Source: Escherichia coli
GTDB taxonomy: Bacteria > Pseudomonadota > Gammaproteobacteria > Enterobacterales > Enterobacteriaceae
Direction: 5' to 3' (one strand)
NCBI RefSeq assembly: GCF_003334405.1
Contig: NZ_QOWM01000003.1
DNA: 64,000 bases
The notes below the pieces were generated by a model that was given only the letters and a program-made list of their open reading frames with translations, was not told the origin of the DNA and did not search any database. Shown piece by piece: positions 54,906-55,116 of the stretch. Each line of letters begins with the position of its first letter. Position 1 is the stretch's first letter. Both the position numbers and the translations under genes were made by a program.

Positions 54906-54934
54906 AACGCCGGAGAGAAAAATCTCCGGCGTTT
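54906..54934 (+). terminator. Rho-independent terminator of uidC
   Basis: AACGCCGGAGA-GAAAAA-TCTCCGGCGTTT, a 9-bp GC-rich stem followed by a T-run, 6 bp after the uidC stop. Confidence 0.75.
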
Positions 54935-54962
54935 CAGATTGTTGACAAAGTGCGCGTTTTTT

Positions 54963-55067
54963 ATGCCGGATGCGGCGTAAACGCCTTATCCAGCCTACAA
55001 AAACTCATAAATTCAAAGTGTTGCAGGAAAAGGTAGGCCTGATAAGCGTAGCGCATCAGGCAATCTC
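54963..55067. repeat. REP/BIME element cluster (2 REP units) between uidC and ydgA
   Basis: ATGCCGGATGCGGCGTAAACGCCTTATCCAGCCTAC and GTAGGCCTGATAAGCGTAGCGCATCAGGC are canonical REP units. Confidence 0.85.
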
Positions 55068-55086
55068 TGGTTTGTTTTCAGATGAA

Positions 55087-55116
55087 AACGCCGGAGTGAA
55101 AATTCTCCGGCGTTTT
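55087..55116 (-). terminator. Rho-independent terminator of ydgA
   Basis: AACGCCGGAG-TGAAAATT-CTCCGGCGTTTT; read on the - strand it is a hairpin followed by TTTTCATC, 10 bp after the ydgA stop. Near-identical to the uidC terminator hairpin. Confidence 0.7.

Follow-up and report, generated by a model that had tools for sequence, protein, structure and literature searches.

The intergenic region between the convergent genes uidC and ydgA in a 64,000-nucleotide stretch of Escherichia coli DNA (contig NZ_QOWM01000003.1 of assembly GCF_003334405.1, hereafter the window) contains two almost identical hairpins, and the question this locus raises is how one short region came to hold both. Sequence reading and a repeat finder placed copy 1 (AACGCCGGAGAGAAAAATCTCCGGCGTTT) at 54906-54934 and copy 2 (AACGCCGGAGTGAAAATTCTCCGGCGTTT) at 55087-55115. 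The copies lie in direct orientation with a start-to-start spacing of 181 bp and are identical at 27 of 29 bases, in agreement with the original prediction of direct repeats differing by two substitutions, and both mismatches are in the loop. With an A-T extension included the duplication is 31 nt long (54904-54934 versus 55085-55115, 28/31 identical). An inverted-repeat search gives each copy a perfect stem of 11-12 bp, with an RNA folding energy of approximately -20 to -21 kcal/mol. Because the match runs through the loop, the similarity is more than that of a generic GC-rich stem. Between the two loops, compared by eye, 6 of 8 bases agree when the register is direct and 1 of 8 when it is inverted, and this is therefore a direct duplication, not one palindrome seen twice. 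The two copies are the sole matches in the window to the degenerate pattern AACGCCGGAG-N8-CTCCGGCGTT, for which shuffled sequences give an expectation of 0.00, and also the sole matches to the looser pattern CGCCGGA-N3-12-TCCGGCG.

We consider it about 80% probable that these hairpins are duplicated copies of one terminator, made by insertion of a bacterial interspersed mosaic element of the BIME-1 type beside an ancestral hairpin. The 152 bp separating the copies include two repetitive extragenic palindromes (REPs), one of Y type and one of Z1 type (Table 1). The two REP units that had been noticed between the hairpins are thus present, but as parts of a larger whole, a single complete BIME-1 with conserved ends and approximately 84% identity to copies elsewhere. 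Positions 1-147 of the spacer match sequences at fepA-entD, satP-mog and sorE-pepE at 80-85% identity, in genomes that have no spacer at uidC-ydgA, and in the alignment of these paralogues conservation reaches well outside the REPs. Because the spacer is repeated elsewhere and conserved beyond its REPs, we identify it as one complete BIME-1 (RIP/RIB) of about 150 bp, having the A, Y, L, Z1, B architecture that PMC3333891 summarises from the work of Bachellier and colleagues. The hairpins enclose one unit and no tandem array, and the conserved unit extends 22-29 nt past each REP. In a consensus built from 24 loci the element ends are conserved (CAGATTGTTGACAAAG ... CTTTGTCATCAGTCT) and partly inverted-repeat-like, matching each other imperfectly; the A and B motifs form an imperfect terminal inverted repeat (AGAYTG.TGACAAAG). 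The L linker, which is also described by the motif AAATTCAA....TTGCAGG, lies where an IHF site has been described in RIP/RIB elements (PMC3333891) and is a predicted one here, recognised by its sequence motif. The window element is among the most diverged BIME-1 copies (82% identity to the consensus). Rfam returned only a sub-threshold match to the REP-derived naRNA4 (37 bits against a gathering score of 59.5), and the 223 nt from 54900 to 55122, spanning both hairpins and the BIME-1, fold far better as single-stranded DNA than do shuffled sequences (z = -6).

The same locus exists in E. coli without the element. A 1-kb query across the region was matched in all 5,426 complete E. coli genomes, many of which span it in 819-821 bp rather than 1,001 bp. 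This short allele was aligned from Nissle 1917, O157:H7 and three other strains; it is exactly 181 bp less than the long one, its flanks are collinear, and it has no REP and one hairpin, whose loop is that of copy 1. Counted by means of a query specific to copy 2 together with the sequence on its left, the long form was found in 1,752 of 5,417 genomes, so that approximately 3,665 (about 68%) have the short allele, nearly all with the one hairpin type carrying the copy 1 loop. Strains with a single hairpin and no REP, for which the original prediction suggested a search, are thus the majority of E. coli, and the exact 181-bp presence/absence allele supports its proposal that both copies stem from one bidirectional terminator (itself a predicted one), duplicated with REP/BIME sequence lying in between.

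The 3' 675 nt of ydgA fall into two deep haplotypes that track this indel: long-allele strains are 98.8% identical to one another and short-allele strains 97.5-99.6%, and the two groups are about 3.5% apart. We note that such a split in the 3' half of ydgA (window 55126-55800) is unusually deep for one species. The uidC end (window 54200-54900) has 99-100% identity across all E. coli strains compared. Strain MMC-J-0050, which has the short allele, combines a K-12-identical uidC end with an O157-like ydgA, and a recombination breakpoint therefore lies in the intergenic region. The single hairpin type, together with the close ydgA 3' haplotype, indicates that the short allele is of single origin.

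The arrangement is not particular to uidC-ydgA. We scanned metagenome contigs for the exact 30-mer of the Z1 REP, which gave 120 loci, located full-length elements with a hidden Markov model (HMM) made from four BIME-1 copies, and collapsed the matches by their flanks to 23 further distinct loci, or 24 with the window locus. At 12 of the 24 loci, direct repeats of 18-29 nt adjoin both element ends at 0-2 nt. The local alignment scores of these 12 repeat pairs are 21-48; 552 mismatched flank pairs, used as the null, scored 11 on average and at most 25, with a 99th percentile of 18.5. The flanking repeats are all terminator-like hairpins, each specific to its locus and consisting of a GC stem and two or three A-T pairs; typically the left copy has an A run on its left side and the right copy a T run on its right. 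In all cases, over lengths of 18-31 nt, what is duplicated is the stem-loop together with the 2-3 A-T pairs that flank it. A stable hairpin is present at at least one element end in 22 of the 24 loci, compared with 5 of 48 distal windows. The junctions are stereotyped, the left one reading [hairpin]TT/CAGATTG... and the right one ...CATCAGTCT(C)/[hairpin], where the slash marks the end of the element. The satP-mog copy is likewise flanked by a repeated hairpin in the paralogue alignment, and the flanking repeats at the window locus are the best preserved among the BIME-1 loci sampled. As a rough control, none of 11 REP clusters of other than BIME-1 type in the same DNA had such repeats (Fisher p = 0.005). 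The presence of the same footprint at half of the BIME-1 loci sampled bears out the suggestion that this arrangement is a record of BIME spread.

Empty alleles with one hairpin were found at five loci: uidC-ydgA, pitA-uspB, fbp, tkt-prohibitin and tsx-yajD. At pitA-uspB the E. coli strains differ by 174 bp in length and the one hairpin of the empty allele is identical to the right-hand copy of the filled one; at tsx-yajD the empty allele is that of strain CB6886, and contig L110 has both hairpins; at tkt-prohibitin there are three alleles, namely empty, filled, and hairpin-BIME-hairpin-BIME-hairpin. Filled and empty sites at these five loci, with one hairpin copy in the empty one, are therefore related in the way that is classic for a target-site duplication. 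In BL21(DE3) the B end and right-hand hairpin at tsx-yajD (L217:345-560) have been lost by a deletion of about 40 bp, which gives an example of how one-sided loci arise.

The longest tkt-prohibitin allele is an observation in its own right. It comes from E. coli JNE25-003 (L215:330-780) and has three hairpin copies and two tandem BIME-1 units, of which the second has as its left end a perfect inverted copy of the right-end motif (GAGACTGATGGCAAAG). The array may be due either to a second insertion into a duplicated hairpin or to unequal crossing-over between hairpins.

Several points weigh against an origin of the repeats by BIME-1 insertion, or against parts of it. Half of the loci (12 of 24) have no two-sided repeat, and at those other than tsx-yajD decay is assumed; the correlation of element conservation with repeat quality is weak (rho 0.39, p = 0.06), and the scan for the exact 30-mer biases the sample to elements with an intact Z1 REP. 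The analysis found no transposase or integrase for BIME-1. HUH enzymes of the Y1 class work through 5'-phosphotyrosine intermediates on single strands and make no target duplication. The sole enzyme linked to REPs, TnpA-REP (RAYT), is an HUH single-strand nuclease, which cuts between C and T (PMC3333891), and its chemistry would not on its own duplicate a target. As for termination, ydgA and uidC are absent from the 3'-end maps in the supplements of Adams et al. 2021 (E. coli Term-seq). With respect to the direction of the polymorphism within E. coli, which rests on two or three outgroup lineages, only one hairpin is present in E. albertii and in Escherichia sp. MOD1-EC7003, and in E. albertii the BIME-1 HMM found no significant BIME remnant (a B-motif-like CTGATGACAA follows the hairpin there and was not detected by that HMM).

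That direction was judged from the ydgA locus of one genome per species. Salmonella, Citrobacter and more distant genera have unrelated terminators at this position and no uid operon. E. whittamii has the long form; its two hairpins and the BIME-1 between them align collinearly with those of K-12, and the junctions are the same. The element has 87% identity to that of K-12 and ydgA 93%, and copy 1 is identical at 28 of 29 bases, with two changes in the left arm of copy 2. A second orthologous element is found in contig L028 (4006-4200), labelled E. coli SCPM-O-B-8794, which keeps a degenerate copy 2 and BIME-1 positions 86-150 and shares locus-specific bases with K-12 (e.g. AATCTCT.GTTTGT). 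Its ydgA is 93% identical to that of K-12, about as distant as that of E. whittamii, and by sequence it is probably another Escherichia species despite its label. The L028 locus is rearranged, unrelated sequence replacing the uid operon downstream of the half BIME-1.

Because E. whittamii and L028 carry orthologous BIME-1 elements, the single-hairpin allele of E. coli is more likely a secondary deletion, and the single hairpin is probably not, as had been supposed, the untouched ancestral state within this species. On balance we favor an insertion older than the split of E. coli and E. whittamii, with the long allele inherited vertically and the short allele arising by essentially one precise loss through the repeats and later shuffled by recombination with breaks in the intergenic region. 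It would be the other way around if the single hairpin were ancestral within E. coli and the BIME-1 with its duplication had arisen in, or been imported into, a K-12-like lineage. Such a recent gain would suit the short allele being the majority form, Nissle 1917 and O157:H7 included, and the single hairpins of E. albertii and Escherichia sp. MOD1-EC7003, as well as the report by Ton-Hoang et al. of more REPs in the subtree that includes clade A (PMC3333891). It is nevertheless unlikely, given an orthologous element with the same junctions in E. whittamii and L028, divergence of the element (87% identity) and of ydgA (93%) that fits vertical descent, and a window element that is one of the most diverged BIME-1 copies. 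Both ydgA haplotypes are about 7% from E. whittamii (K-12 92.6% identical, short 92.7%); the K-12 haplotype is thus not the nearer of the two, which argues against recent introgression.

The insertion we propose would have proceeded as follows. The ancestral region between the convergent uidC and ydgA would have held a single bidirectional intrinsic-terminator hairpin, whose 13-bp stem lay between an A run and a T run. Insertion of a 150-bp BIME-1 at the foot of this hairpin would have duplicated the whole palindrome (about 29-31 nt) on either side, as a long target-site duplication. If the target was extruded as a cruciform or as single-strand hairpins, the two feet of the palindrome would have become spatial neighbours; the 3' ends of the element could then have joined the 5' foot on each strand, and fill-in of the single-stranded palindromes would have yielded hairpin-element-hairpin. 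The stagger between the joining points would be set by the hairpin and by no fixed ruler, because the duplication matches the hairpin at any length. It is a matter of speculation that the central IHF-site motif would bend the element and pair its ends, which would suit a concerted two-ended reaction. After insertion both stems would have been kept while the element drifted, each presumably serving the gene beside it as a terminator or as a stem that protects its RNA. The 29-nt direct repeats would also make the element precisely deletable, and the one-hairpin E. coli allele is most likely such a deletion, which would have happened essentially once.

RAYT cleavage between C and T was considered as the source of the element ends and rejected on inspection, as the conserved ends do not fit C/T boundaries. 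On paper, an HUH insertion made symmetrically on the two strands would give a heteroduplex that resolves to hairpin-element or to element-hairpin, not to both. Since the HUH product would not have the two hairpins, BIME-1 insertion would require either another enzyme or conversion of the intermediate by host repair. Our tentative proposal, for which we would not yet claim even odds, is that BIME-1 is a hairpin-targeting miniature transposon that joins at the feet of an extruded terminator palindrome and produces an 18-31 nt duplication by means of a DDE or Cas1-like 3'-OH integrase, and not by the RAYT HUH nuclease alone.

The main non-enzymatic rival is a replication template switch, in which a nascent strand stalled past the hairpin, jumped to a donor BIME-1, returned upstream and recopied the hairpin. 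Such a switch would need no dedicated enzyme, hairpins stall replication, the duplicated length of 18-31 nt always matches the hairpin, and these same hairpins show, in contig L012 and at the fbp locus, loop inversions of a kind typical of template switching. However, the element ends are nucleotide-precise in independent loci (...TT/CAGATTG on the left, CAGTCT(C)/... on the right, with offsets of 0-2 nt), and the target hairpins, diverse as they are, show no evident microhomology to the ends of the element. Precision of this kind is the mark of site-specific end recognition and thus argues against template switching, which we regard as improbable for the duplication itself. As for the inversions, the loop of the ydgA terminator hairpin in Escherichia sp. 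MOD1-EC7003 (L012:3573-3640) is reverse-complemented with its stem kept (AGAAAATT versus AATTTTCT), the palindrome is also extended (GCCAAAACGCCGGAG/CTCCGGCGTTTTGGC), and the uidC 3' end has been lost; at fbp, the hairpin centre is reverse-complemented between contigs L127 and L213 (GGAGCAATCC versus GGATTGCTCC). To judge from their sequences, these changes look like switching within a hairpin.

It is very unlikely that the terminator was first duplicated in tandem from an unrelated cause and that a BIME-1 landed between the copies later. Slippage of short palindromes does occur, and the tkt array shows that such units can be reiterated, but the same two-step coincidence would be needed at 12 of 24 independent loci, with the gap filled exactly, to within 0-2 nt, and at the five loci examined 0 alleles with two adjacent hairpins and no BIME were seen. 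That two independent terminators are alike by chance or convergence, CGCCGGA/TCCGGCG stems being common and an unrelated fbp terminator having almost the same stem (AACGCCGGA...TCCGGCGTT), has next to no probability, as the identity spans the loop and the A-T extension (27/29 or 28/31), the pattern lies nowhere else in the window with 0.00 expected, and the idea is refuted by the 181-bp presence/absence allele, in which the indel removes exactly one copy and the element.

Table 1. Features of the uidC-ydgA region. Coordinates are those of the window; the MG1655 coordinate equals 1,746,486 minus the window position.
Feature	Coordinates	Strand	Basis
uidC, glucuronide uptake porin, upstream convergent gene	53635..54900	+	Open reading frame list; RefSeq annotation of identical genomes and MG1655
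Hairpin copy 1, left copy of the probable target-site duplication, AACGCCGGAGA-GAAAAA-TCTCCGGCGTT(T)	54906..54934 (from 54904 with A-T extension)	.	Repeat finder, folding
BIME-1 left end (A motif), CAGATTGTTGACAAAGTGCGCGTTTTTTA	54935..54963	+	Conserved in paralogues and 24-locus consensus; starts directly after hairpin
Y-type REP (palindromic unit), TGCCGGATGCGGCGTAAACGCCTTATCCAGCCTAC	54964..54998	+	Alignment with other BIME-1 copies
L linker with ...AAATTCAAAGTGTTGCAGG motif	54999..55032	+	Aligned to paralogue/consensus L motif AAATTCAATATATTGCAGG
Z1-type REP, inverted orientation, GTAGGCCTGATAAGCGTAGCGCATCAGGCA	55033..55062	+	Invariant among paralogues
BIME-1 right end (B motif), ATCTCTGGTTTGTTTTCAGATG, diverged from consensus ...TTTTGCGTTTGTCATCAGTCT	55063..55084	+	Paralogue alignment, consensus
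Hairpin copy 2, right copy of the probable target-site duplication, AAAACGCCGGAG-TGAAAATT-CTCCGGCGTTTT	55087..55115 (stem 55085-55116)	.	Repeat finder, folding
ydgA, DUF945 protein, downstream convergent gene	55126..56634	-	Open reading frame list; RefSeq annotation of matching genomes and MG1655

The stop codon of uidC is 5 nt ahead of copy 1 and that of ydgA is 9 nt away from the copy 2 stem. The hairpin of the short allele is a predicted bidirectional terminator, with the tail UUUUUUCUUA in the ydgA sense and UUUUGGCUG in the uidC sense. In the long allele, copy 1 has the tail UUUCAGAUUG on the + strand (uidC sense) and AUUUUUUAC on the - strand, where it is a predicted good terminator, and copy 2 has UUUUCAUCUG on the ydgA sense strand and UUUUGGCCG on the + strand. 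A consensus terminator scan flags copy 1 on the - strand only. The hairpin proximal to each gene has a tail of only 3-4 U, and the better U tract is on the distal copy. The insertion would have split the A and T runs, so that uidC transcripts would first meet copy 1 (UUUCAGAUUG) and ydgA transcripts copy 2 (UUUUCAUCUG), and the stronger U tract for ydgA (AUUUUUUAC) would now lie beyond the BIME. One terminator per gene, as in the original prediction, is plausible. That the element is much diverged (82%) and yet its repeats are the best preserved, with stems largely kept in E. whittamii, suggests that both hairpin copies may be under selection, in line with one terminator per gene.

Other sequences resembling parts of the locus were also considered. 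A 66-nt query over copy 2 and its flanks matched a single place per genome in complete E. coli genomes, and a paralogous donor locus for copy 2 with an extended match is ruled out, there being one matching place per genome. An exact 16-nt opposite-strand match (TCCGGCGTTTTGGCCG) to the right arm and flank of copy 2, at window 59379-59394, lies in coding sequence with no partner arm and was judged to be due to chance. A short TTTCAGAT repeat within the insert, considered as a second duplication, is explained by the likeness of the two element ends. The window has a second BIME-1-like element at 10399-10620, in which an A-type end (ACAGTTGCTGACAACGTGCG) starts at 10426, directly after a terminator hairpin (AAACGCAGAAGGATAACCTTCTGCGTT, 10399-10425); its interior is broken by extra sequence, and its B-type end (approximately 10600-10618) has no matching hairpin copy after it. 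In contig L108 (2703-3010), four exact Z1 REPs spaced about 93 bp apart form a tandem array unlike the single-unit BIME-1, perhaps an "atypical BIME".

No repeats in E. coli are more abundant than REPs and BIMEs, whose mode of insertion has been an open question since the 1980s. A preprint of March 2026 describes the mechanism by which REPs insert in vivo as "not fully established" and perhaps semi-random. We found no mention of a flanking hairpin duplication or BIME target duplication in PMC3333891, PMC2817692, PMC3733652, PMC3184786 or two recent preprints; the original BIME papers of 1991-1999, which are those most likely to note such repeats, lie outside this search, and the novelty of the footprint is therefore provisional. 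The uidC-ydgA locus by itself is one more BIME-1 polymorphism, and the value of the result is in an insertion footprint, both general and statistically solid, of a major family of repeats. Comprising a terminator-hairpin foot, duplication of a whole palindrome, stereotyped ends and precise reversibility, this footprint makes REP/BIME mobility testable: it defines the target, predicts which sites are invadable, and limits the chemistry to a staggered joining with fill-in that is unlike that of an HUH transposase. It would also explain why BIME-1 elements are sited at gene 3' ends and why they are present or absent between strains as whole units. Each insertion would remodel the 3' untranslated regions of two genes, dividing the A and T runs of a bidirectional terminator between the copies. 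If this is correct, insertion would incidentally have given many E. coli genes a second terminator copy open to selection, and BIME-1 elements would stay reversibly excisable by way of the duplication.

Among known processes, precise deletion between short direct repeats (slipped misalignment, or "precise excision") resembles the 181-bp loss, which removes one repeat and the interior and leaves a single hairpin. Palindromic DNA between repeats is known to favor such deletion. It accounts for the loss allele only and not for how the repeats arose. Class C group II introns also insert immediately 3' of a terminator stem-loop, in the T run, but make no target duplication and depend on a ribozyme and a reverse transcriptase, both of which are absent from BIME-1. 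In CRISPR spacer integration by Cas1-Cas2 with IHF, and in casposons, a palindromic target of about 28 nt is attacked at both borders and duplicated around the insert, and IHF takes part in the E. coli system; BIME-1 has a central motif described as an IHF site. The systems differ in the size of the insert (150 bp for BIME-1 versus 33 bp), in the target (diverse terminators versus a repeat beside the leader) and in the variable length of the BIME-1 duplication, and the parallel with Cas1-Cas2 is an analogy of geometry only.

Bacterial MITEs (miniature transposable elements with inverted repeats) such as Correia, ERIC/IRU and RUP share with BIME-1 a short, non-coding sequence, imperfect (in BIME-1 partial) terminal inverted repeats, direct repeats of the target at the flanks, empty sites and an intergenic position. 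Their duplications are 2-10 bp, fixed by the transposase of a parent insertion sequence (IS), while those of BIME-1 are 18-31 nt and take in a whole palindrome; we know of no parent IS for BIME-1. REPINs mobilised by RAYT are likewise inverted REP doublets that can fold as one long hairpin, and are non-autonomous and assumed to be mobilised in trans. A REPIN is a unit bounded by its REP doublet and has no target duplication, whereas the unit in the window runs about 25-30 nt past each REP to inverted-repeat-like ends and, with its relatives, is flanked by a duplicated target of 18-31 nt. HUH transposition of the IS200/IS605 type proceeds without target duplication, and TnpA-REP cuts single strands between C and T near REPs; the BIME-1 footprint is instead the one expected of 3'-OH attack at 5'-staggered positions, as in DDE or Cas1 chemistry, and not of phosphotyrosine chemistry.

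The closest comparison is with the BIME-1/RIP/RIB elements of Gilson, Bachellier and Hofnung, Boccard and Prentki, and Oppenheim. In anatomy the window element is the same as these and differs in nothing, having inverted Y and Z1 REPs around an L linker, outer A and B motifs, a length of about 150 bp, one copy per locus, and a site at the 3' ends of transcription units. Whole-unit presence or absence of BIME-1 among E. coli strains has been reported before (PMC3333891; PMC1187871, citing Bachellier 1997), with 71% of BIME-1 length placed in strain-specific loops (PMC1187871). What distinguishes the elements described here is the duplicated target hairpin that flanks them, at uidC-ydgA and at half of the BIME-1 loci sampled.

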